From an uncultured Trueperaceae bacterium (GTDB lineage Bacteria; Deinococcota; Deinococci; Deinococcales; Trueperaceae), in assembly GCA_963727505.1 (NCBI GenBank), contig CAVSGP010000014.1, forward strand, positions 32,001 through 96,000: DNA of 64,000 nt, read 5' to 3'. Under the pieces are notes generated by a model. The model did no database searches and was not told the DNA's origin. It saw only the letters and a list, made by a program, of their open reading frames with translations. Numbering within the stretch: position 1 is the stretch's first letter; every line of letters starts with the position of its first letter. Shown here one piece after another: positions 1 to 52,535 of this stretch. A program made the position numbers and the translations under genes.

Positions 1-1399
1 GATGCAGTACCTCGAGGACGCGGACCTGGACGCCGACGCACTCATGCGCGCCTTCGACAAGGCCGTGCGCTCCGGCGAGCTCACGCCGGTGCTGCTCACC
101 TCCGCCACCCGCGTCATGGGCGTCAGCCTGTTGATGGATTTCATGGTCCACGGCGTGCGGCACGTGAAGGACCATCGGCCGCTGGCCGTCGAGAAGGGCG
201 AGCCGCCCGAGCTGGGCGAAGGGCATCCCTTCGGAGCCCGCGTGTTCAAGACGGTGGTCGACCCCTACCTCGGCAAGGTCTCGCTGATGCGGGTGCTGTC
301 CGGCAGCGTCAAGGCGGGTAGCAACGTGCACGACCCCAACCGCGAGGCGGACGTCCGCGTGTCGCACCTGTACGTGCCCAACGGCAAGGACCTCTCCGAG
401 GTCAAGGAGCTGAACGCCGGCATGATCGGCGCCATCACCAAGGTCGAAGAGGTCAAGACCGGCGACACGCTGTGCGATCCCGCGCATGTCTTCCAGCTCG
501 CGCCCATCCGCTTCCCCTCTCCCGTCATGGCGCTGGCGCTGACGCCCAAGTCGCGCGGCGACGAGGACAAGATGTCCGACGGGCTCCACAAGCTCCTCGA
601 CGCCGGCCCCACCCTGATGCTCGAGCGCAATGCCGACACCCACGAGACGGTGTTGTGGGGCATGGGCCACGTGCACCTCGAGATCGCCGTCAACGCCCTC
701 AAGGACCGCTTCGGGGTCGAGGTGGACACCCGCCCGCCGTCCGTCGCCTACCGGGAGACCATCGGCGGCAACGGCGACGCCCGCTACCGCCACAAGAAGC
801 AGACCGGCGGTGCCGGGCAGTTCGCCGAGGTGGCGCTTCGGGTCGCGCCCCTGACGCGCGGCGAAGGCTTCCAGTTCACGTGGAAGGTGGTGGGCGGCTC
901 CATCCCCACGCAGTTCCAGCCGAGCTGCGAGAAGGGCGTCAAGAGCGCCCTGGAGGCGGGCGTGCTGGGCGGGTTCCCGGTGCAGGACGTGCAGGTCGAG
1001 GTCTACGACGGCAAGGATCACCCCGTCGACTCCAAGGACATCGCCTTCCAGATCGCGGCGGCGCATGCGTTCAAGGAGGCCATGCAACAGGCCAAGCCGG
1101 TGCTGCTCGAGCCCGTGGCGCTCCTCAAGGTCCGCGTCCCAGACCGCTACACCGGTGACGTCATCTCGGACCTCAACACCCGCCGTGGCCGCATCCTGGG
1201 CATGGACACCGAGGGTTCGGTGAGCGTGGTCAGCGCGCACGTTCCGATGGCAGAGATCCTGAGCTACTCCCCCGACCTGCGCTCGATGACGGGCGGCCGG
1301 GGCGTGTTCTCGCTCAAGTTCGAGCGCTACGACGTGGTGCCGAGTCAGGTCGCCGACCGGGTGCTGGCCGACCGCCAGCAGGAGAAGGCGGCGTCGTAG
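1..1399 (+). CDS. Elongation factor G paralog (EF-G2-like), 5' end outside window
   Basis: EF-G domain II-V motifs: GMGHVHLEI, VAYRETI, HKKQTGGAGQFAEV, DGKDHPVDSKDIAFQIAA, DLRSMTGGRG. It is not in a str (rpsL-rpsG-fusA-tuf) context, so a paralog is likely. Confidence 0.9.
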   Translation, partial: MQYLEDADLDADALMRAFDKAVRSGELTPVLLTSATRVMGVSLLMDFMVHGVRHVKDHRPLAVEKGEPPELGEGHPFGARVFKTVVDPYLGKVSLMRVLSGSVKAGSNVHDPNREADVRVSHLYVPNGKDLSEVKELNAGMIGAITKVEEVKTGDTLCDPAHVFQLAPIRFPSPVMALALTPKSRGDEDKMSDGLHKLLDAGPTLMLERNADTHETVLWGMGHVHLEIAVNALKDRFGVEVDTRPPSVAYRETIGGNGDARYRHKKQTGGAGQFAEVALRVAPLTRGEGFQFTWKVVGGSIPTQFQPSCEKGVKSALEAGVLGGFPVQDVQVEVYDGKDHPVDSKDIAFQIAAAHAFKEAMQQAKPVLLEPVALLKVRVPDRYTGDVISDLNTRRGRILGMDTEGSVSVVSAHVPMAEILSYSPDLRSMTGGRGVFSLKFERYDVVPSQVADRVLADRQQEKAAS

Positions 1400-1477
1400 G
1401 CGCAGCGTCTCGCCTCGGTACGGCCTCCGTCCGCTTCCGCGCGCGCAGTCGCGTGCGCTGTGCCGATCGGGACGGCG

Positions 1478-2236
1478 TCAGCGCTTCTGCGGCGAGAGCA
1501 GCGGCGCCAGGTTCATGCCGCTGAGGTAGGCCAGGAACGACGGCAGGATCGGCAGCACGCAGGGGGAGAGGAAGGACAGGGCGCCGGCCCCGAAGGCCAG
1601 CGCCAGCGTGGGCGCGGCCATGGTGCCGAACAGGGCGCTCTCGGCGCTCCCCATGTTGGCCAGGTAGGGGGACAGCGCGTTGAGCGCGCCGGTCAGCAGC
1701 AGCACGCCCACGGCGATGAGCAACACCGCCCCGACCTTCTCGAGCACGCCCGAGTAGCGCCGCAGTGCCCGCGTCAGCGGCAGGAGCTGGGACAGGGCCA
1801 GGAACGGCAGCGAGAAGCCGAGCGAGTAGGCCAGCAACAGGAGCCCTCCCTGCGCCCCGCCGCCGCTGGTGGCCGCGATGCCCAGGATGCCGGCCAGGAT
1901 GGGACCGATGCAGGGCGTCCAGCCCGCGGCGAAGGCGACGCCCACCACCGCCGAGCCCAGGTAGCCGCTCGGCTTGCGCATGAGGTGCACGCGCAGCTCC
2001 TGCTTGAACACCGGCAGCGGCACCACGTCCAGCATGATGACGCCCATCACCACCAGCAGTACCCCGGAGACGACGCGCAGGGCGCTGCCGTAGGCGAACA
2101 GGAGCTGGCTCAGCAGCCCGGCGCTGAAGCCCAGCGCCACGAACACCGCCGAAAGGCCGGCGACGAAGGCCAAGGTGTGGAGGGCCAGGTGGACCCGCAG
2201 CGGGAGCCCGGTCTCGGCGCTCGCCTCCGTCCTCAT
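1478..2236 (-). CDS. ccdA: CcdA/DsbD-beta family thiol-disulfide transporter, circularly permuted
   Basis: Six hydrophobic segments. Both Pro-Cys motifs are present (GWTPCIGPIL and AGALSFLSPCVLPILP), but the normally N-terminal SPCVLP helix lies at the C-terminus. Confidence 0.85.
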   Translation of the reverse strand: MRTEASAETGLPLRVHLALHTLAFVAGLSAVFVALGFSAGLLSQLLFAYGSALRVVSGVLLVVMGVIMLDVVPLPVFKQELRVHLMRKPSGYLGSAVVGVAFAAGWTPCIGPILAGILGIAATSGGGAQGGLLLLAYSLGFSLPFLALSQLLPLTRALRRYSGVLEKVGAVLLIAVGVLLLTGALNALSPYLANMGSAESALFGTMAAPTLALAFGAGALSFLSPCVLPILPSFLAYLSGMNLAPLLSPQKR

Positions 2237-2260
2237 GGTGGTGCCTTCATGGCGCTGCCG

Positions 2261-3154
2261 TCATAGCGACGCTAGCTGACTGCGCACGTCTTGCGCGAGC
2301 TCGCGACCCAGCTCGTCGGCCTCCTTGGCCTCCCCGCTGACGCTGGCCTGCAGGGTCGTCTCGCCACGCAGCACGGCGCCGAACAGCGTCAGCTCGCCGT
2401 CGTCGGTGACGTTCGCCAGCGCGCCGACCACGCACTCGCGGCAGGCCTCGTCGCTCTCGGGCGGGCCCTGCCGCAGGGAGAAAGCGAAGGAGCGCTCGGC
2501 ACGCACGCGGTCGAAGCTGGGGCGGTGCTGCAGCGAGTAGGCCACCTCGAACGCGAGGTCATCGTCGGCGCGCACCAGCAGCCCCAGGGCGCCCTGACCG
2601 GGCGCCGGGGCGAAGGTCTCGGGATCGAGCACGTTGTCGAGCCGATTGCGATGGTCCAGCACGATGAGAGTGGCGGCGGGGACCAGCAGCCCGTCCAGTT
2701 CGCCGGAGGTCAGCAGCTTGAGGTCCCCTTCGATGGAGCCGGATACCTCGACGGCCTCGACGCCTCGATGCTGGCCGGCCAGGTAGGCGGCGTCCCGTGG
2801 CGTCAACACCCCCACGCGGGCACCCTGGGGCAGGTCGGACAGCGCGCGCGTGCCCTTGGTGACCAGCGCAGTACGCGGCTCCAGCCGGCGTGACACGGCC
2901 GCCAGCGTGACCTCCTCGGGCAGCGCCAGGGGGAGCGTCTCGAGCGGGGCCACCGCCACGCCGATCTCCCCGTTCACCAAGGCCTTCAGGAGGGGATCGT
3001 CACCGTCGGCCGGCTTCGCGGCAGCGTTCTTGATGGTGCGGAGGGCGAAGTTCACGTCCGGCCACTCGTCCGTCAGTTGCTCGAGCACTTCCCGAGCCTG
3101 GCGCAGCGCGAGTGCGCCGTCGCGGTTGCCCAGCACGATTCTTGCCATGGCCAT
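2261..3154 (-). CDS. HemC (porphobilinogen deaminase)-fold protein with degenerate active site
   Basis: LALRQA, LPQGARVG, PAPGQGALG and AERSF match HemC. The HSxKD, GTSSLRR, RGNxxTR and GGC motifs are absent. Confidence 0.8.
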   Translation of the reverse strand: MAMARIVLGNRDGALALRQAREVLEQLTDEWPDVNFALRTIKNAAAKPADGDDPLLKALVNGEIGVAVAPLETLPLALPEEVTLAAVSRRLEPRTALVTKGTRALSDLPQGARVGVLTPRDAAYLAGQHRGVEAVEVSGSIEGDLKLLTSGELDGLLVPAATLIVLDHRNRLDNVLDPETFAPAPGQGALGLLVRADDDLAFEVAYSLQHRPSFDRVRAERSFAFSLRQGPPESDEACRECVVGALANVTDDGELTLFGAVLRGETTLQASVSGEAKEADELGRELAQDVRSQLASL

Positions 3155-3299
3155 GTTGTATCACATTCGGCTGCGCCTGCGGATGCGAGAAAGCACTTGT
3201 GGAAGGGCATCGGTGGCGAGCGGGAAGGGCGGCGGACGCCAACGTGCGGGCGCCGCCCGCGGCCGTACCAGCGCCGCCGCCGAGGGCCCGTGCGGATGC

Positions 3300-4475
<1,176 letters not shown>

Positions 4476-4630
4476 GCCTGTGTCCTCCAGGGAGAGCCGT
4501 GGGGCTCGAGCGCGCCCGGCCCTCTGCCTCGGGGTGCGGCCGCGCTTCGTTCGATTCGCCATGCTAGCAGGGCGCGGCGCCGGTCAGGGTGCCGTGGGAT
4601 GGGGTCGGTGTGCGGCGCGATGGACAGGGG

Positions 4631-4731
4631 CCGGGTTGGGCTGTTCCGGGTTGGGGTGTTCCGGGTTGGGGTGTTCCTGGTTGGGGTGTTCCTGGTTGGG
4701 TTGTTCCTGGTTGCGTTGTTCCGGGTTGCGT
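4631..4731. repeat. 15-bp tandem repeat (CCKGGTTGGGGTGTT-like), 6 full units plus a partial, G-rich
   Basis: Units start at 4631, 4646, 4661, 4676, 4691, 4706 and 4721. It lies in the spacer between divergent metK and the GNAT gene. Confidence 0.95.
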
Positions 4732-4818
4732 GGGCCGGGCCGAGGGGTCCGGCGGAGCCGGCTCCGCGTTGGGCACGCGGGTCGCCGTTGCGGGAGGGAG
4801 CCGTGGCTATACTCGGGC

Positions 4819-5403
4819 ATGCCGGATACCCACGTGGGGCACGCCATCCGCCGAGCGCGCCCAGGCGACGCCCAGGAGATCGTCCGGCTCATGCGCACGA
4901 TCTACAGGGAGGGGCGCTACTTCGTCGGTAATGGCCCGCCGCTCGCCGAGTCGCTGGCCCGTCGCATCGCCGGTGACGACCCGTCGTACGCCCTGTACCT
5001 GGTGGCGGAGTGCGGGCAGGGTGATGTGCGCGAGGGCGACGGGCGCGAGGGTGATGTGCCCGATCGTGATGTGCGCGAGGGCGATGTGCGCGAGGTGGGG
5101 GCGTGGCTCGAGCTCCACCGCATGCAGCCGCGCCGCATGCAGCATGTCGCGGTGCTCACGGTGGCGGTGGCCCCCGCGTGGCGCCACAGGGGTCTGGGCC
5201 GGGGCCTGTTGCGGCGCAGCTACGCCTGGGCGGCCGAGGTCGGGGTGAGCAAGATCAGCCTCAACGTGCGCGCCGGGAACACTTCCGCCATCGCCCTCTA
5301 TCGCTCCGAGGGGTTCCTGGAGGAGGGGCGTGAGCAGGGGCAGGTGCGCACGGACGACGGTGGGTTCGAGGACAACGTGATCATGGGACGCAGGTTGCCC
5401 TGA
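4819..5403 (+). CDS. GNAT family N-acetyltransferase
   Basis: IRRARPGDA, VAPAWRHRGLGRGLL (motif A) and VRAGNTSAIALYRSEGF. TATACT lies 5 nt before ATG 4819. Confidence 0.9.
   Translation: MPDTHVGHAIRRARPGDAQEIVRLMRTIYREGRYFVGNGPPLAESLARRIAGDDPSYALYLVAECGQGDVREGDGREGDVPDRDVREGDVREVGAWLELHRMQPRRMQHVAVLTVAVAPAWRHRGLGRGLLRRSYAWAAEVGVSKISLNVRAGNTSAIALYRSEGFLEEGREQGQVRTDDGGFEDNVIMGRRLP
5017..5091 (+). repeat. In-frame 15-bp tandem repeat (GAGGGCGATGTGCGC-like x5; EGDVR) inside the GNAT gene
   Basis: Five degenerate units encoding QGDVR EGDGR EGDVP DRDVR EGDVR. Confidence 0.9.
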
Positions 5404-5481
5404 CGGGGTGCGCCGTCATCGCTCGTGCATGGGAAGGCCGGGCGGGTTCTCCCGTCTCCCGGGTTCCCCTAGACTGGCCCC

Positions 5482-6036
5482 ATGGCTGACCCCGATCCCG
5501 CCCTCGCAGCGGCGCACGGAGCGCAGGCTCCGGCCGCCCGCGTCGCGCTGTTCGTCGACACCCAGAACCTCTACTACGCTGCCCGCGACGGCTACGACGC
5601 TACCGTCGATTACGGTCGCCTGCTCGAGCTGGCGCTTCGCGGCCGCGACCTGGCATCGGCCACGGCCTACGTGGTGGAGCGAGAAGGGGACAGTACGGCC
5701 TTCGGGTTCGTCACCAAGCTCTCCGCGCTCGGGTACCGCGTGCGCCGCCGCAGCGTGCGCGTGCACCGCACCGACGAGGGCGGCGGCGTGGTGATGGAGG
5801 GGGACTGGGACATGGGGATCGCCGCGGACATGGTGCGCGCGCTGCCCTACGTCGACGTGCTGGTTCTCGGGTCCGGCGACGGCGATTTCGTGCCCATGCT
5901 GGAGCTGGCGCAGCAGCGCGGGGCCCGTGTGGAGGTGCTCGCGTTCCGCGAAGCGTCCGCCCAGAGCCTCATCGACCTCGCCGACCGCTTCAGTCACCTC
6001 GCTGACGAGGCCGAGGTGTTCGTGCGCAAGGGCTGA
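5482..6036 (+). CDS. NYN domain (LabA/DUF88) protein
   Basis: VALFVDTQNLYY, GDWDMGIAADM, LGSGDGDFVP and LIDLADRF motifs. Confidence 0.9.
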   Translation: MADPDPALAAAHGAQAPAARVALFVDTQNLYYAARDGYDATVDYGRLLELALRGRDLASATAYVVEREGDSTAFGFVTKLSALGYRVRRRSVRVHRTDEGGGVVMEGDWDMGIAADMVRALPYVDVLVLGSGDGDFVPMLELAQQRGARVEVLAFREASAQSLIDLADRFSHLADEAEVFVRKG

Positions 6037-6065
6037 GCCGATCCGTGGCCTAACCGATCCGTGGC

Positions 6066-7550
6066 CTAACCGACCCGATCTGCGCAGGTGCTGGGCCGCA
6101 CGGGCCAGGCCAACCCGGGCGCTGGTGTGGGCGCTGGTGTGCGCGCTGACGTGGGTGCTGACGTGGGCGTCGCCGCGGGCGTCGCGGACGCAGCGCTCTT
6201 CGTGTCGGGCGCGCTTGCAGCGGCCCCCCAACTGCCGTCCACGCTTTCCAGGTAATCGTAGGTCGCGCCGATCACGTCCAGCCACGCGCCGTAGACGGCG
6301 TTCTCGCGTGCGAGCAGGGCGCGGCAGGCGCTCGGCGAGGTGGCGGGCGTGGCGGCGGTGTCCCGCCAGGCGGCGAGCTCGGCTTCGAGCAGCGCGGACG
6401 CGTCGTCGACGGCAGTCCGGGCGCGTGCGACATCGGCCGCGAAGCTCGCGTCCAGCGCGTCGAGCGCGGCCCGGGCGCGCCTGACGCGCTCGACGGCGGA
6501 GCTCCGGGCCGAATCGGCGCCGCCGTCGAGCCGTAGCCGTGCACGGAGCTCGATGCTCCACTGATCGTCCGCCTGCGGGCCTAGCTGACCGTTGAGATCG
6601 GCGGCGGGCCGGCCGCGATCGAGCGACAGCGAGGTGCTCACCTGGTAACCGACGCTGCTCGACTCGTAGGTGGCGCTCAGCGTCACGTCGCGTAGCACGT
6701 CGAAGGGCACGCGGTCGCGCTCCGCAGTCGCGCGCTCCAGCTCCAGGCGCAGCCGCTCCCGCTGGGGCGCCGTCGCGGCCGGTGGCGGCAATGCGAAGCG
6801 CAGCGGCACGAACTGCGCGGCGCCCGCGAAACCGAGTCGGGCGGCCTGCGTTCGCAGCGCCTGCAGCGCGTGGCGGCGCCCGTCGACCAGGGCCTCGGTG
6901 CGGAGCAGGGAGGGGCTCGATCGGGTGGCGTTCGATCGGGTGGCGTTCGACGGGGCGGCCCGCGTGGTCGCATGGAGCCGTTCCCTCGCAAGGTCGAGTT
7001 CAGCCCGCTGCACCGCCACTTCCGCCCTCAGCGCCTTGGCTTGGAGCCTCAGCGCGGCCAGGACGTCGCTGCGCCGTGCGTGACGTAGCCGCTCGCGGGC
7101 CAGGAGCAGATCGGCGCGGTCGGCCAGGATCGCGGCGTTGTCGTAGCGCCATGCCAGGTCGAGCTCCAGGTCGGCGCGGGCCCCCAGCGCGGCGGGGTCC
7201 TCCACGTCGGCGCCGTAGCTCAGGGCGGGACGGGCCGTGAACGTGACGTCGGTGCCGGCACGGCTGACGCCGAGCGCGCGTTCGGCGTCAGCGACCGCTG
7301 CCGCCTGCCGAAGGGAGCGCTCGCTGTCGGGCGTCGACGTCAGAACGTCGGCGGGCGCGAACGCCAGCACGAACGGCGCGCACAAGAACGTGGCAAGGCA
7401 GACGGCCGCGTGCGGTCGACGGCGGGCACGCCGGCGGAGGGCGCCCCGGCGAACGGCACGCCAAGCGCCGGCACGCCAACCGGCTCCTGGCGGGGGCGTG
7501 CGGGTGGGAGCGCCGCCTGGGTGCTCGGTAGCGCTGACGAGATCCCCCAT
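6066..7550 (-). CDS. Putative exported TolC/outer-membrane-efflux-like protein (start uncertain)
   Basis: Hydrophobic signal-like stretch, then alternating coiled-coil helices and beta-strand-like segments (VTLSATYE..YQVSTSLSL; WSIELRARLRL). Family call is by pattern only. Confidence 0.45.
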   Translation of the reverse strand: MGDLVSATEHPGGAPTRTPPPGAGWRAGAWRAVRRGALRRRARRRPHAAVCLATFLCAPFVLAFAPADVLTSTPDSERSLRQAAAVADAERALGVSRAGTDVTFTARPALSYGADVEDPAALGARADLELDLAWRYDNAAILADRADLLLARERLRHARRSDVLAALRLQAKALRAEVAVQRAELDLARERLHATTRAAPSNATRSNATRSSPSLLRTEALVDGRRHALQALRTQAARLGFAGAAQFVPLRFALPPPAATAPQRERLRLELERATAERDRVPFDVLRDVTLSATYESSSVGYQVSTSLSLDRGRPAADLNGQLGPQADDQWSIELRARLRLDGGADSARSSAVERVRRARAALDALDASFAADVARARTAVDDASALLEAELAAWRDTAATPATSPSACRALLARENAVYGAWLDVIGATYDYLESVDGSWGAAASAPDTKSAASATPAATPTSAPTSARTPAPTPAPGLAWPVRPSTCADRVG

Positions 7551-7653
7551 CTCCGTCCCCCTCTCCCCGGATGTTGAGCGGGCTATACCCTAGCGGAGGG
7601 CCGGTTGCATCGGGGTCACACGGGCGTTCTGCGCTAGCGATCGACGTCGTTCC

Positions 7654-9093
7654 CTACGGCTCTTCGGGTCCTCGCCCCAGCCGTTCCTGCAACAGCCGCC
7701 GCACCGCGTCGGGTCTGGCGGCGCCGCGGCTCTCCTTCATCACGCGCCCGAGCAGGGCGTTGATCGCCTTGGGGTTCTCCCGTGCGCTCTCGACCACGGC
7801 GGGGTTGGCCTCCATGATGCGCTCCACCAACGCGGCGAGTGCCCCCTCGTCGGTGATCTGCTTGAGCCCCCTGCGCTCGACGACGGTGTCGGGCTCCTCG
7901 CCGTCGATCACGTCGGGCAGGATCTCCTTGGCGATCTTGCCGGAGATGGCGCCCTCGTCGATGAGGCGGACCATCGCGGCCAGCCCCTCTGGCTTCAGCG
8001 GCACCTCGGCCAACCCCACACCGCGCTCGTTCAACAGGCCCGCCACGTCCCCGATCAGCCAGTTGGCGATGCGTTGAGCGGCCCCGTCGGGCGCGCGCTC
8101 GTAGGCCGCCGTCGCAGCGTCGAAGAACGCGGAGGTCGGGACGTCGAAGGCGATGAGCTCCGCGTCCTCGGCGCGCACCCCGAGGGCCAGGTAGCGTTCG
8201 CGCTTGGCCTGCGGCAGCTCGGGCATGGATGCGTGGATCTCCTCGAGCCATGCGCGGTCGAGCGTCAGCGGCGGCAGGTCGGGCTCGGCCATGTAGCGGT
8301 AGTCGGCCGACTCCTCCTTGCTCCTCAGAAGGTAGGTCTTCTGGCCGCCCTCGTTCCAGCCGCGCGTCTCCTGCGCCACGGTGCGCCCGTCGTCGAGCAG
8401 ACGCTGCTGGCGCTTGATCTCGAACTCCAGCGCCGACGCCACGCTCTTGAAGGAGTTGAGGTTCTTGACCTCGACCTTGGTGCCGAAGCTGCCGTCGGCG
8501 TTGCGGAGCGACACGTTGACGTCGGCCCGCATCTTCCCCTGCTCGGGGCTGGCGTCGGACACCCCGAGGGCGCGGGCGACCGCCTGCACATGGGTGAGGA
8601 AGGCGCGTGCCTCCTCCGGGGTACGCAGGTCGGGCTCGCTCACCATCTCGATGAGCGGCGCGCCGGCGCGGTTGAGGTCGACCAGGCTGTGGTCGGCGTA
8701 AGCGGGGTGGACCAGTCGGCCGGCGTCCTCCTCGACGTGACAGCGGGTGATGCCGATGCGCCGCCCGTTCTCCAGCTCCACCCAACCGTGCTCGCCGACG
8801 GGACGGTCGAACTGGCTTATCTGGTAGTTCTTGGGCGCGTCCGGGTAGAAGTAGTGCTTGCGGTGGAACTGCGTGAGCTCGGGGACCCGGCATCGCAGTG
8901 CCAGGCTGAAGCGGACCGCCTTCAGAATGGCGTCCTCGTTCGTCACGGGCAGGCTTCCCGGCAGCCCGAGGCAGACCGGGCAGGTGTTGACGTTGGGCTC
9001 CAGCCCGAAGCTGTCGGCCGAGCAGCCGCAGAACATCTTGCTCTTCGTGCGGATGGCGAGGTGGATCTCCAGACCGATGACGGGCTCGGGCAC
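7654..9093 (-). CDS. gatB: Asp/Glu-tRNA amidotransferase subunit B
   Basis: IGLEIH, CPVCLGLPGSLP, RKHYFYPDAPKNYQISQ, EEDAG, VEVKNLNS and DYRY motifs. Confidence 0.97.
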   Translation of the reverse strand: MPEPVIGLEIHLAIRTKSKMFCGCSADSFGLEPNVNTCPVCLGLPGSLPVTNEDAILKAVRFSLALRCRVPELTQFHRKHYFYPDAPKNYQISQFDRPVGEHGWVELENGRRIGITRCHVEEDAGRLVHPAYADHSLVDLNRAGAPLIEMVSEPDLRTPEEARAFLTHVQAVARALGVSDASPEQGKMRADVNVSLRNADGSFGTKVEVKNLNSFKSVASALEFEIKRQQRLLDDGRTVAQETRGWNEGGQKTYLLRSKEESADYRYMAEPDLPPLTLDRAWLEEIHASMPELPQAKRERYLALGVRAEDAELIAFDVPTSAFFDAATAAYERAPDGAAQRIANWLIGDVAGLLNERGVGLAEVPLKPEGLAAMVRLIDEGAISGKIAKEILPDVIDGEEPDTVVERRGLKQITDEGALAALVERIMEANPAVVESARENPKAINALLGRVMKESRGAARPDAVRRLLQERLGRGPEEP

Positions 9094-47498: not shown

Positions 47499-47711
47499 CC
47501 CCGACAGTATAAGCGCGTCGGGCACGGCGGGCGGGGCGGCGCGCCACGTGCTCCGGCGGCGCCAGCTGCCGCTCCCGTTGCGCGGTGTTCCGCGCGCCCC
47601 GAGGGGTCCGGGACCCGCTCCTGGACCCTTCGTTATAGTGGGGCGCATACGTGCAAGCGTTTGCCGGCCCGGGCCCTGGTGCGCCGACGGGCCGTTGAGA
47701 GGCGGCAGCAC

Positions 47712-50700
47712 ATGCCAGCAACCCTGGAACAGGTACGCAAGCGGATCCAGCGCTCCGCCAGCCAGGAAGGCCCCCTCCTGACGCGGTTCGCCGAGATCCT
47801 CTTCGACAAGGCCGACGACGCCTTCCTGGAGGAGTTCGACTCCGACAGCCTCTTCGCCATGACCGTTGACGGGCTCCACTTCCTGGGGGGCGGCCTCGAG
47901 GACGGCCCCCGCGTGCAGGTGTTCAACCCGCGGTTCGAGACCGACGGTTGGGACGCGCCCTACACCGTGATCCGCTTGCTGCTCGACGACCGGCCCTTCA
48001 TCGTCGACTCGGTGCGGGCCGAACTGAGCCGGCATGGCGTCGAGCTCTTCCACCTGCTGCACCCGATCGTCGTACCGGTGCGCGACGCCTCGGGGGCTGT
48101 GGTCGGGCTGGACGTCAAGGGAGAGCGGGAGCAGCGCGAGGCGGTCGAGATGTACTTCGTCGAGCGCCTCGAGGACGAGGAACAGCGGGCCGATCTCGCC
48201 GCCGCCGTGACGCAGGTGCTGCAGGACGTCCTGCTCGCGACCGGCGACTACCAGGCGATGCGCGAGCGGGCGCTGGCGATGCGAGAGCATGTGGCCGGGC
48301 TGCGGAAGAAGAGCGCGCAGGGCTATCATCGCGATCGCGGCGAGGAGCTGGAGGAGTACGGCGCCTTCATGGAGTGGCTCGACGACGAGAACTTCGTGTT
48401 CCTCGGCTACCGCGAGTACGACATCAAGGTGGTCGGCGGGGTGCGCTCGTTGCAGGTCACGCCGGGCAGCGGTCTAGGCATCCTGCGCAATACCGAGACC
48501 AGCGCCTACGACGAGGCGGTGCCCATCGCCGATCTCCCCGAGGGGTTGCGGGAGCGCGTGACCGGCGGCCGCGTGTTCGTGGTCACCAAGACCAACGCCG
48601 AGGCCACCGTGCACCGGCCCGCCCGCATGGATTACATCGGTATCAAGAAGCTCTCCGACAGCTGGCAGGTGATGGGCGAGCACCGCTTCCTGGGCCTGTT
48701 CACCTCCAAGGCCCACTCCACACCGGTCGAGGACATCCCGATCCTGCGGCGCAAACTGCGGCAGGTGCTCGAGCTCGACGACGCGCTTCCCGGCTCCCAC
48801 GACTACAAGGGGATCGTGGCGGTGTTCAACAGCATGCCGCGCGAGGAGCTCTTCTGGTCGGACGCCGAGCAGCTTCATCGCGACATCCGCACCATCCTCG
48901 GGCTCGAGCAGGAGCGCGGCGTGCGCGTGACGCTGCGCCCCGACCCGCTGGGTCGAGGCATCGGCGTGATGGTGATCATGCCGCGCGAGAGCTTCAACGC
49001 CGAGGTGCGGCGCACCGTGCAGCGCTTCCTCGCCCGCAAGCTCGCCGCCGACCACGTCGACTACAACCTGGCGATGGGCGAGGACCAGGCCCAGGTCCGC
49101 TTCCACTTCTTCTTCACCACCGGACTGCGGCCCGACGACATCGACCTCAAGGGGCTGGAGCGCGAGGTCGCCGAGCTCGCGCGGAGCTGGCGCGACGAGC
49201 TGCGCGAGCGGCTGTTGGCCGCCCATGGTGCGCGCGAGGGTCGCAAGCTGGCCGAGCGCTACGCGGGCGCCTTCGACCCCCGCTACACCGCCGATACCGG
49301 CGCCGCCCTGGCGGTGCGCGACATCGCCAACCTCGAGAGGCTCGGCGAGGACACGATGCTGGCCGACGTCCTCAACCCGCCCGAGGAGCGCGGGGAGGAC
49401 GCTGCCAGCCTCGTACGCATCTACCACCACGGGCACGGCATGGCACTCTCCGACGTGCTCCCCGTGCTCGAGAACGTCGGCTTCCGGGTGATCGAGCAGG
49501 TGCCCTACATGCTCACTCCCGAAGGCGGCAAGCGCGGCATCGAGGTGTTCCGCGTGCACGACGCCGAGCGTCGCGCGCTGGACGTACGCCGCCATCGCGA
49601 GCGGCTCGTCGACGCCCTCGAGGGCCTGCTGCTGGGCCGCGCCGAGAACGACCGCCTGAACCGGCTGGTGCTGCAGGCCGGACTCACCGTGCGCCAGGTG
49701 GCGCTGCTGCGCGCCTACCAGATGGATTTCTCGCAGCTCAACGCGGTGACCAGCCGCAGGTTCATCAACGACACGCTTCTGGCGCACCCGTCGGTGGCGG
49801 CGGACCTGGTCGCGTACTTCGAGGCGCGCTTCGACCCCGCGCGCGAGGAAGGACGCCACGAGCGCATGGAGGCCGCCCGGCAGGCGGTGCTCTCAGGGCT
49901 GGCCAAGGTGCGCTCGCTGACGGAAGATCGCACCTTGCGCGGCCTGCTCGATCTGATGGAGGCCACGGTCCGCACCAACTACTTCCTCGACAAGGACTAC
50001 ATCGCCTTCAAGCTCGCCTCCGGACAGGTGGCCAGCATGCCCGATCCCCGGCCGCTCTACGAGATCGCGGTGGCCGGCCTCGGCGTCGAGGGCGTACACC
50101 TCCGCGGCGGAAAGGTGGCGCGCGGCGGCATCCGCTGGAGCGACCGCCCCGACGACTTCCGTACCGAGGTCCTGGGGCTCATGAAGACGCAGATGACCAA
50201 GAACGCCGTCATCGTGCCGGTCGGCTCCAAGGGCGGCTTCGTGCTCAAGCGGGCGCCCGCCGGCCGCGACGCGCTGCGCGCCTACGTCCGCGAGCAGTAC
50301 CAGGTGTTCATCCGCGGCCTGCTCGATCTCACGGACAACCGCGTCGACGACCGGGTGGTCCACCCCGAAGGACTCGTCATCTACGACGAGGACGACCCCT
50401 ACCTCGTCGTCGCGGCCGACAAGGGCACCGCGACGTTCTCCGACCTGGCGAACGAGACCGCCGCCGAGTACGACTACTGGCTGGGCGACGCCTTCGCGTC
50501 GGGCGGCTCGCACGGCTACGACCACAAGGTCATGGGCATCACCGCGCGCGGGGCCTGGGAGTGCGTGGCGCGCCACTTCGACGAGCTGGGCGTCGACGTC
50601 TTCGAGGACACCTTCAGCGTGGTGGGGATCGGCGACATGTCCGGTGACGTCTTCGGCAACGGCATGCTCTACACCGACCGCATCCAGCTCAAGGCGGCCT

Positions 50701-52535
50701 TCAACCACCTGCACATCTTCCTCGACCCGAACCCCGACCCGAAGGCGAGCTTCGCGGAGCGCAAGCGGCTGTTCGAGCTGGCGCGCTCCTCGTGGAACGA
50801 CTACGACGGGAAGCTCATCAGCGCCGGCGGAGGCGTTTTCGAACGCGGCGCCAAGAGCATCCCACTGAGCGCCGAGGTCCGCAAGATGCTTGGCGTCGAC
50901 GACGAGGCGCTCAGCGGGCAGGACCTGGTGCGCGCCATCCTGGCCATGCCGGCCGACCTGCTGTGGAACGGCGGCATCGGCACCTACGTGCGCGCCAGCA
51001 GCGAGCGCGACGCCGACGTCGGCGACGCCACCAACGATCCGGTGCGTATCACGGCCCCCGAGCTCCGCTGCAAGGTGGTGGGGGAGGGCGGCAACCTCGG
51101 CCTGACCCAGCTCGCGCGCATCGAGTTCGCGCGCGCCGGGGGCCGGATCAACACGGACGCCATCGACAACTCCGCCGGCGTGGACACCTCCGACCACGAG
51201 GTCAACATCAAGATCCTGCTGCAGCCGCTGGTCAGCTCGGGCGAGCTCAACTTCAAGCAGCGCAACCGCCTGCTCAAGGAGATGGAGGACGAGGTGGCGC
51301 GGCTGGTGTTGCGCGACAACGACCAGCAGTCGCTGGCGCTCAGCCTGGCCGAGCGCCGCAGCGTCGAGGACCTCGGGCTGTTCGACTCGCTGCTCGAGGA
51401 GCTGGCCGTGCGCGGGGGGCTCAACGCGCGGGTGGAGTTCCTTCCCACGCGGCGGCAGCTCCAGGAGCGCCAGCGCGCGGGCGAGGGGCTCAGCCGCCCC
51501 GAGCTGGCCGTGACCATGGCCTACGTGAAGATGGGGCTGTACCGGAAACTGCTGGAGACCGGGCTGCCGGACGAGCCCGACTTCGAGCACTACCTGTTCG
51601 AGTACTTCCCGGCCGCGGTCAAGGAACGCTACGTCGAGGTCATCCGGCGGCACACCCTGCGGCGCGAGATCACCGCGACGCAGTTCACCAACATCGTGGT
51701 CGACCTGCTGGGGGCCAGCTTCGTGCACCGCACGGCGCGCGATAGCGGGGCCGCGGACGTCGACGTCGTCAAGGCGGCCCTGATGGCCCTCGAGGTCCTC
51801 GACGCACGCGGCGTGGGGGAGCGGCTGGAGCGGCACCAGCCCCGTCTGCCCGCGGAGGCCCACTACGAGGCCCTGCACCACCTGGTGCACGCCGTGGAAG
51901 GCGTGGTGAGCTGGATGCTGTTCAACGACCTCACCCGCCGCAACGTGGGCGACTTCGTCGATACCTACCGGGAGCCGCTGCTGACGCTCCGCAACGGCAT
52001 CGAGGGGATGTTGCCGGTTGCAGAGCGCCGGCGCTTCAAGCGCCGCACCAAGCAGCTCGGCAAGCTCGGCTTCGGCGCCGAGCTGGCGGCCGAGATCGCC
52101 AGCCTGGACTACCTGCCGAGCAGCGTCGGCGTGATCGAGGTCAGCCGCCGGACCGAGGTGGGGTTGGAGGAGGCCGCCACGCGCTTCTACGCCCTGGGCG
52201 AGCGTCTGGCGCTGGGGTGGCTGCGCGACGGTCTGTCGCAGCTCCCCACGCAGGGGAGCTGGGAGAAGATCGCGGCCGTCGGACTGGTGATGGACCTGCG
52301 CGAAGCGCAGCGGAAGCTCGCCACCACCTTCATCGAGGCCCGCAAGCAGGAGGACGGGCTGTCGGCCGAGGGGTTCCTGGAGCGCCACCCGCACCTGCTG
52401 GAGCGCTTCGACGAGGCGCTCGAGGAACTCAAGCTGCCCGGAGCGTTGACGCTGGCGGGCGGCGCGGTGCTGGTGAGGCTGCTGGCACAGGCGCAACGCA
52501 CCGGCGTCAACGGCGCGGTGGCGCGCGCCGGTTGA
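47712..52535 (+). CDS. Large (about 1600 aa) NAD-specific glutamate dehydrogenase
   Basis: RGGKVARGGIRWSDR, KNAVIVPVGSKGGF, AADKGTA, GDMSGDVFGNG and NTDAIDNSAGV motifs. Confidence 0.95.
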   Translation: MPATLEQVRKRIQRSASQEGPLLTRFAEILFDKADDAFLEEFDSDSLFAMTVDGLHFLGGGLEDGPRVQVFNPRFETDGWDAPYTVIRLLLDDRPFIVDSVRAELSRHGVELFHLLHPIVVPVRDASGAVVGLDVKGEREQREAVEMYFVERLEDEEQRADLAAAVTQVLQDVLLATGDYQAMRERALAMREHVAGLRKKSAQGYHRDRGEELEEYGAFMEWLDDENFVFLGYREYDIKVVGGVRSLQVTPGSGLGILRNTETSAYDEAVPIADLPEGLRERVTGGRVFVVTKTNAEATVHRPARMDYIGIKKLSDSWQVMGEHRFLGLFTSKAHSTPVEDIPILRRKLRQVLELDDALPGSHDYKGIVAVFNSMPREELFWSDAEQLHRDIRTILGLEQERGVRVTLRPDPLGRGIGVMVIMPRESFNAEVRRTVQRFLARKLAADHVDYNLAMGEDQAQVRFHFFFTTGLRPDDIDLKGLEREVAELARSWRDELRERLLAAHGAREGRKLAERYAGAFDPRYTADTGAALAVRDIANLERLGEDTMLADVLNPPEERGEDAASLVRIYHHGHGMALSDVLPVLENVGFRVIEQVPYMLTPEGGKRGIEVFRVHDAERRALDVRRHRERLVDALEGLLLGRAENDRLNRLVLQAGLTVRQVALLRAYQMDFSQLNAVTSRRFINDTLLAHPSVAADLVAYFEARFDPAREEGRHERMEAARQAVLSGLAKVRSLTEDRTLRGLLDLMEATVRTNYFLDKDYIAFKLASGQVASMPDPRPLYEIAVAGLGVEGVHLRGGKVARGGIRWSDRPDDFRTEVLGLMKTQMTKNAVIVPVGSKGGFVLKRAPAGRDALRAYVREQYQVFIRGLLDLTDNRVDDRVVHPEGLVIYDEDDPYLVVAADKGTATFSDLANETAAEYDYWLGDAFASGGSHGYDHKVMGITARGAWECVARHFDELGVDVFEDTFSVVGIGDMSGDVFGNGMLYTDRIQLKAAFNHLHIFLDPNPDPKASFAERKRLFELARSSWNDYDGKLISAGGGVFERGAKSIPLSAEVRKMLGVDDEALSGQDLVRAILAMPADLLWNGGIGTYVRASSERDADVGDATNDPVRITAPELRCKVVGEGGNLGLTQLARIEFARAGGRINTDAIDNSAGVDTSDHEVNIKILLQPLVSSGELNFKQRNRLLKEMEDEVARLVLRDNDQQSLALSLAERRSVEDLGLFDSLLEELAVRGGLNARVEFLPTRRQLQERQRAGEGLSRPELAVTMAYVKMGLYRKLLETGLPDEPDFEHYLFEYFPAAVKERYVEVIRRHTLRREITATQFTNIVVDLLGASFVHRTARDSGAADVDVVKAALMALEVLDARGVGERLERHQPRLPAEAHYEALHHLVHAVEGVVSWMLFNDLTRRNVGDFVDTYREPLLTLRNGIEGMLPVAERRRFKRRTKQLGKLGFGAELAAEIASLDYLPSSVGVIEVSRRTEVGLEEAATRFYALGERLALGWLRDGLSQLPTQGSWEKIAAVGLVMDLREAQRKLATTFIEARKQEDGLSAEGFLERHPHLLERFDEALEELKLPGALTLAGGAVLVRLLAQAQRTGVNGAVARAG

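Follow-up and report, generated by a model that had tools for sequence, protein, structure and literature searches.

Canonical CcdA has both of its termini outside, and the prototype of the family is the six-helix CcdA of Thermus thermophilus (PDB 5VKV). Natural circular permutation has rarely been documented in helical membrane proteins. An inverted-repeat, elevator-type mechanism was proposed for CcdA in a preprint (bioRxiv 10.1101/2022.09.07.506916). DsbD and ScsB, as described by Cho et al. (2012; PMC3322552), have eight helices and bear periplasmic domains (alpha and gamma) on either end. In the case of the thiol-redox pair DsbB/VKOR, circular permutation via gene duplication and deletion was proposed by Bevans et al. 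(2015; PMC4555120), and that paper called this ancient case the first report of such a permutation in helical membrane proteins. This hypothesised event (PMC4555120) was the nearest precedent found. No published description of a permuted CcdA or DsbD was found in the literature searched, which lay mostly outside subscription papers, and the string "permut" was absent from Cho et al. (2012; PMC3322552). The permuted CcdA form reported here is apparently undescribed; the original prediction knew of no description either, but allowed for one.

The locus lies in a window of 64,000 nucleotides (the whole stretch of DNA that was analysed, with a GC content of 69.8%) from an uncultured Trueperaceae bacterium. 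An open reading frame at 1478–2236 on the minus strand starts with ATG, stops at 1478–1480, and encodes a complete protein of 252 amino acids, in which the helices follow the order TM2-3-4-5-6-linker-TM1. The GC3 of this ccdA is 0.98, similar to that of its neighbours, and AAGG is present 8–11 nt 5' of the ATG. The nearest in-frame stop codon on the 5' side is a TGA at 2261–2263, separated from the ATG by 24 nt (spacer and TGA together 2237–2263, minus strand), which doubles as the stop of the upstream gene. This co-directional gene (2261–3154, minus strand) is hydroxymethylbilane synthase-like (hemC-like); its Pfam Porphobil_deam match (4.9e-29) covers the N-terminal domain only, and TIGR00212 scored 134.9 bits, under the NCBIfam cut-off of 164. 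Because the in-frame TGA closes the hemC-like gene 24 nt 5' of the ATG, a TM1 encoded upstream is excluded, in agreement with what had been predicted from the short distance to the previous stop. The supply of TM1 via read-through from the same-frame upstream ORF was also ruled out, since that ORF encodes a soluble hemC-like protein. The hemC-like gene and ccdA are probably co-transcribed. No promoter- or terminator-like sites were found in a scan of 1300–3400, and the hemC-ccdA synteny was not conserved at three permuted loci of other genomes, namely, L001, L038, and L039.

Convergent with ccdA lies an EF-G paralog (2–1399, plus strand), which is cut by the window start and matched the NCBIfam elongation factor G subfamily with 595 bits against a cut-off of 583. 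Upstream of metK (3300–4562, minus strand), 15-nt tandem arrays were located at 4631–4728 (6.5 copies) and 5018–5095 (5.2 copies), and these arrays yield short peptide repeats in several frames. No Rfam family, SAM riboswitches included, reached its threshold in 1–8000. Moreover, a very large bacterial NAD-specific glutamate dehydrogenase (1624 aa) is encoded at 47661–52535 on the plus strand, with all ACT and helical-motif domains present.

When all PDB chains were searched with phmmer, the only protein matched was Thermus CcdA 5VKV (E 2e-26, 96.5 bits). Residues 20–192 of the window protein aligned to 42–210 of the 5VKV chain, corresponding to TM2–TM6 (i-E 1.9e-19), and residues 210–247 aligned to chain 4–41, corresponding to TM1 (i-E 9e-06). 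In 5VKV, one range ends at 41 and the other starts at 42, with neither gap nor overlap, and the window protein carries them in swapped order, which is the pattern of a clean circular permutation. The Pfam family DsbD_TM (PF02683) was likewise matched in two stretches, with 45.6 bits against a gathering cut-off of 27.1 (E 6.6e-12). The original prediction had proposed the order TM2-3-4-5-6-1 and an alignment to PF02683 as a check; the swapped 5VKV stretches and the two-piece profile match above cut-off bore this out, and two abutting pieces in swapped order were obtained rather than a single colinear CcdA alignment. All six 5VKV helices were matched, and both the hydropathy profile and the AlphaFold2 helices agreed with six. 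Since the match order is reversed and the charge bias would put both termini inside, the protein is called a CcdA variant and not an ordinary member; the colinear TM1–TM6 order with both termini outside that characterises CcdA/DsbD_TM proteins is not found in it. The scores for DsbD NF001419 (12.3 bits against a cut-off of 330) and TsoB NF045694 (31.5 bits against 805) came from the membrane part alone, and neither full-length DsbD nor full-length TsoB, with periplasmic or rhodanese domains, is represented.

All parts of the protein are encoded on the minus strand. The N-terminal tail (residues 1–19; 2180–2236) is the counterpart of the latter half of the canonical TM1–TM2 cytoplasmic loop, aligns to residues 45–59 of the canonical-order protein P0114, and is predicted to be cytoplasmic. 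The core (residues 20–192; 1661–2179), with a TM2-like helix that begins at about residue 19, covers positions 48–215 of the 219 of the DsbD_TM profile. It holds the TM4 motif WTPCIGP (residues 106–112; 1901–1921), with the redox Cys109 at nt 1910–1912. The linker between TM6 and TM1 (residues 193–209; 1610–1660), predicted to be extracytoplasmic, occupies the gap between the two 5VKV stretches. Its length had been put at about 25 residues, which was too long: the unaligned linker is 17 residues, with about 20 between the hydrophobic cores. The relocated TM1 (residues ~210–240; 1517–1609) carries an SPC motif with the redox Cys226 at nt 1559–1561. The C-terminal tail (residues 241–252; 1481–1516), which terminates in K and R, is equivalent to the first half of the TM1–TM2 loop in canonical proteins, aligns to P0114 at about 39–50, and is predicted to be cytoplasmic.

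The topology was evaluated from the mean K+R per segment over 30 family sequences. For the segments predicted inside, the means were 2.67 (N-tail), 3.63 (loop 3-4), 2.83 (loop 5-6), and 1.10 (C-tail), and for those predicted outside, 0.17 (loop 2-3), 0.13 (loop 4-5), and 0.37 (TM6-TM1 linker). This charge distribution fits a six-helix N-in/C-in topology, the opposite of canonical CcdA, and by the positive-inside rule it supports the proposal that the termini were shifted across the membrane to the cytoplasmic side. An AlphaFold2 model built from the alignment reached a mean pLDDT of 77.1 and a pTM of 0.73. In this model, each PC motif interrupts its helix (at 105/107 and 221/228, with the TM1 break at 222–227), and the linker forms short helices, one of them at 198–203. 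On comparing the model with the PDB by Foldseek, 5VKV was the top match (probability 1.00, TM 0.46/0.50, 180 columns, 38% identity, E 0.07), in an alignment that is sequential and so covers TM2–TM6 only and is silent on the placement of TM1; all other matches had TM ≤0.29. Because none of the six helices has been lost and the two broken ones that bear the cysteines are among them, the fold should be the usual CcdA bundle (an inverted repeat with TM1 and TM4 at its centre), with both termini now expected in the cytoplasm.

The permuted CcdA is a real, conserved family. In a search of 5.8 billion proteins, the TM4 motif preceded the TM1 motif by pattern in 98 of the 100 best matches; of the remaining two, P0078 has the same order by cysteine spacing and P0094 is a 145-aa fragment. 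The hunt for homologs of the same order that had been proposed along with the prediction was thus successful. The permuted homologs are 47–96% identical to the window protein and lie on independent contigs of up to 5.8 Mb from several sources, and those with source names belong to Trueperaceae, Deinococcales, and Deinococcota MAGs. Their ORFs are intact and of uniform length (235–290 aa). The next 20 matches (coverage 64–77%) were canonical, as shown by pattern for 12 and by the position of the cysteines for 8. Among the best 150 matches of the family profile to 50%-identity representatives, 16 were permuted, 15 by pattern and P0236 by its single full-length match and its place in the alignment of diverse permuted sequences (A2). 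A profile search of genome contigs gave 80 loci among the matches listed, of which 77 were canonical and three permuted, the latter being L001 (Deinococcales), L038 (Chloroflexi), and L039 (Anaerolineales) from separate assemblies.

The claim that both redox cysteines are kept was upheld, as C109 and C226 (TPC and SPC) are invariant in 30 close permuted sequences (alignment A1) and in the 21 diverse ones of A2. The 30-member alignment contains 48 invariant columns, which include both cysteines and the W-x-P-C-x-G-P and S-P-C-V-L-P motifs. W106, P108, C109, and G111 are invariant in A1 and A2, and G218, F222, P225, C226, L228, and P232 in A2. Within the Deinococcota-type clade (30 sequences), S197 and E199 of the linker are also invariant. 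One homolog, P0084 (373 aa), is a permuted CcdA with a hydrophobic C-terminal extension of about 125 residues, which may have come from a genuine fusion or from read-through into a membrane gene that lies downstream. The fusion of a cytoplasmic domain was rejected in this case, as the extension consists of hydrophobic sequence alone with no Pfam match. In a Trueperaceae MAG, locus L030 (6001–6678) encodes a canonical-order CcdA, whereas the permuted form occurs in other members of Trueperaceae; both may be present together in Deinococcota.

Judged from its sequence, the gene very probably encodes a functional, naturally circularly permuted CcdA, which belongs to the DsbD superfamily and would transport electrons between thiols and disulfides. 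Its chain starts in the former cytoplasmic TM1–TM2 loop, passes through TM2–TM6, continues into a linker of about 17 residues that is predicted outside, and finishes with TM1, which carries the first redox cysteine. Cytoplasmic thioredoxin would reduce the C109-C226 pair, which would next face the outside and there reduce thioredoxin-like proteins of the ResA/TlpA/CcmG type, serving cytochrome c maturation as well as other reduction in the envelope. The motion could follow the inverted-repeat, elevator-type mechanism put forward in the preprint (bioRxiv 10.1101/2022.09.07.506916). Fold detail, redox activity, and partners are what we infer; ordinary CcdA chemistry would be expected because the cysteines are invariant, functional-type CcdAs are close, and L039 has an adjacent ResA/TlpA-like gene. 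In L039, this redoxin gene begins 7 nt downstream of the permuted ccdA, and another redoxin gene lies about 1 kb upstream. In the window, no thioredoxin or redoxin Pfam match at E ≤1e-5 was obtained in the 50 other ORFs scanned, and the sole thematic neighbour of ccdA is the hemC-like gene of haem synthesis.

The protein could also be a neofunctionalised relative that kept the fold and took another role, for instance transport, a non-cytochrome pathway, or exchange with another donor or acceptor. This is considered unlikely. One source named P0009 as a "sulfite exporter TauE/SafE" family protein, and many members also match PF13386; however, the best family match is DsbD_TM/CcdA, and both redox cysteines, which an exporter would not need, are invariant. 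A changed role would also suit the cut in the cytoplasmic TM1–TM2 loop, a possible thioredoxin-facing element, and the clade-specific invariance of S197 and E199 in the linker. The canonical CcdA at Trueperaceae L030 points the same way, as two coexisting forms may have separate jobs. Nevertheless, the permuted lineages adjoin ordinary CcdAs at 54–59% identity, and L039 retains the classical ccdA-resA arrangement.

The gene is even less probably a non-functional remnant, that is, a decaying leftover of a tandem ccdA duplication in which electron transfer was lost, and such a reading is regarded as highly improbable. In its favour, duplications give rise to circular permutants, and the window has no partner gene next to ccdA. 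However, a family that spans 47–96% identity has nonetheless kept 48 invariant columns with both cysteines and both PC motifs, its ORFs are intact and uniform in length, the GC3 of 0.98 is that of the neighbouring genes, and a ResA-like gene adjoins the permuted ccdA in L039. Finally, an artefact, in which a misassembly, a frameshift, or a wrong gene call would mimic the permutation from an ordinary or tandem ccdA, can be practically dismissed: although the stop of the upstream gene shares its frame with ccdA, the upstream ORF is the soluble hemC-like protein and not a TM1, the three genome loci from separate assemblies are also permuted, and the junction, which the original prediction had named as a possible misassembly, is not one, as the start, the order, and the end are shared by at least 98 of the 100 best homologs, on independent contigs (some of 2.8–5.8 Mb) and from independent sources.

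The recurrence of the permuted form was evaluated in other CcdA lineages. The TM2–TM6 core, which is colinear in both forms, was cut from 342 proteins with an HMM from the family alignment; 115 of these proteins were permuted, 221 were canonical, and 6 were without a TM1 motif within 70 residues of the core. In a FastTree analysis of 336 rows, the window clade comprised 98 permuted rows and was pure (support 99), and the other 17 permuted rows were scattered. The order trait took 14 changes on this tree, at least four of them forced by starred branches. The numbers were again 14 changes and at least four forced when 76 of the 336 rows (17 outlying permuted, 11 from the big clade, 27 nearest canonical, and 21 random canonical) were analysed by IQ-TREE under LG+C20. 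In an AU test on the TM2–TM6 core, the best tree uniting all permuted rows was rejected (delta lnL 207, p 3.5e-10). A single origin of all permuted forms was rejected on the basis of this test and the pairwise identities.

In the case of P0218, a permuted protein, the identity was 56% over 209 residues to the canonical P0239 and 35% to the window protein. Similarly, the permuted L038 of Chloroflexi and the canonical P0223 shared 54% over 212 residues and 67% over TM1. Overall, the permuted lineages adjoin ordinary CcdAs at 54–59% identity. For the other outlying permutants, the best canonical and the best permuted relative differed by 1–8 points, except in two close pairs; because these margins are so small, three lineages are counted as secure, and four by the starred branches. 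When P0218 was used as its own query, 8 of 120 matches were permuted (62–100% identity, on different contigs) and 112 were canonical, and the named canonical matches were alphaproteobacterial. Going by these alignments, the shift of TM1 to the C-terminus is also present in alphaproteobacterial-type and Chloroflexota CcdAs that are nearer to canonical CcdAs than to the window protein. The permuted form seems to have arisen more than once. The balance leans towards a minimum of three to four independent gains or reversals of the shift of TM1 behind TM6, in Deinococcota-type, alphaproteobacterial-type, and Chloroflexota proteins, and possibly in more.

Every permuted form has its break in the same TM1–TM2 loop, as seen in the A2 alignment. 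This loop tolerates large insertions (about 50–75 residues), because in four canonical-order proteins of the 342 (P0140, P0132, P0179, and P0261) the TM1 motif lies 77–104 residues before the core, where about 28 is normal. If the repeated origin is true, CcdA would be a polytopic membrane family with recurrent natural circular permutation evident at the sequence level, and the N-in/C-in form would carry no disadvantage and might even be advantageous, for instance by sparing TM1, which is weakly hydrophobic and bears a cysteine, from N-terminus-first insertion.

As for the origin of the permutation, the most likely route would be a ccdA that was duplicated or fused head to tail and then trimmed at its two ends, a mechanism that we infer from the tails of the permuted proteins. 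The first 26 residues of the P0218 linker align to the C-terminal tail of the canonical P0239, and the N-tail and C-tail of P0218 align to overlapping parts of the P0239 TM1–TM2 loop. The N-tail and C-tail of the window protein overlap likewise on the TM1–TM2 loop of P0114. Duplication and trimming is favoured because such an overlap would be expected from it, whereas cut-and-paste would leave none. Duplication intermediates were looked for as proteins with TM1 on both sides of the core (0 of 342) and as longer matches with two motif sets (0 of 120), and a second ccdA was found at none of the 80 loci among the matches listed. In addition, a third BLASTP HSP aligned residues 100–236 of the window protein to 11–159 of P0114 (E 1e-06). 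The internal repeat of CcdA (TM1-3 ~ TM4-6) is visible by BLASTP in this way, with TM4-5-6-TM1 of the permutant aligned to canonical TM1-2-3-TM4.

The two forms, at 54–59% identity, provide a natural experiment on how connectivity and terminus location bear on insertion and folding. The same experiment extends to the elevator-type motion that was proposed for this inverted-repeat transporter of electrons and to thioredoxin docking after the TM1–TM2 loop is cut. For annotation, it is relevant that profiles see permutants as partial or two-piece DsbD_TM matches, or mislabel them, as with P0009 and the TauE/SafE exporter name.

Compared with the prototype 5VKV, the window protein is homologous over six helices and likewise has two PC-motif cysteines in broken helices. 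However, its order is TM2-3-4-5-6-1 instead of 1-2-3-4-5-6, the cytoplasmic TM1–TM2 loop is interrupted, TM6 and TM1 are joined on the outside by a new linker of about 17 residues, and the termini are predicted inside, not outside. The nearest canonical rows to the window clade by tree path length are CcdAs of the P0114 type. P0114 itself (source name CcdA family, Effusibacillus) is 41% identical to the window protein over TM2–TM6 and 39% over TM1; it has the canonical order and ends 7 residues after the aligned TM6 part, whereas the window protein continues into the linker and TM1. The beta domains of DsbD and ScsB belong to the same Pfam family and share the same essential membrane cysteine pair (PMC3322552). 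Unlike DsbD and ScsB, the window protein consists of six helices without any additional domain, and its predicted inward termini could not bear periplasmic domains. The 120 longer homologs listed, mostly redoxin-CcdA fusions, were all canonical but one, and that one was without a TM4 motif by pattern. In the case of DsbB/VKOR, the relation is ancient and was deduced from the structures of two distinct families (PMC4555120). In contrast, the CcdA permutation occurs within one family, is obvious in sequence at 54–59% identity between the two forms, and appears to be recurrent.
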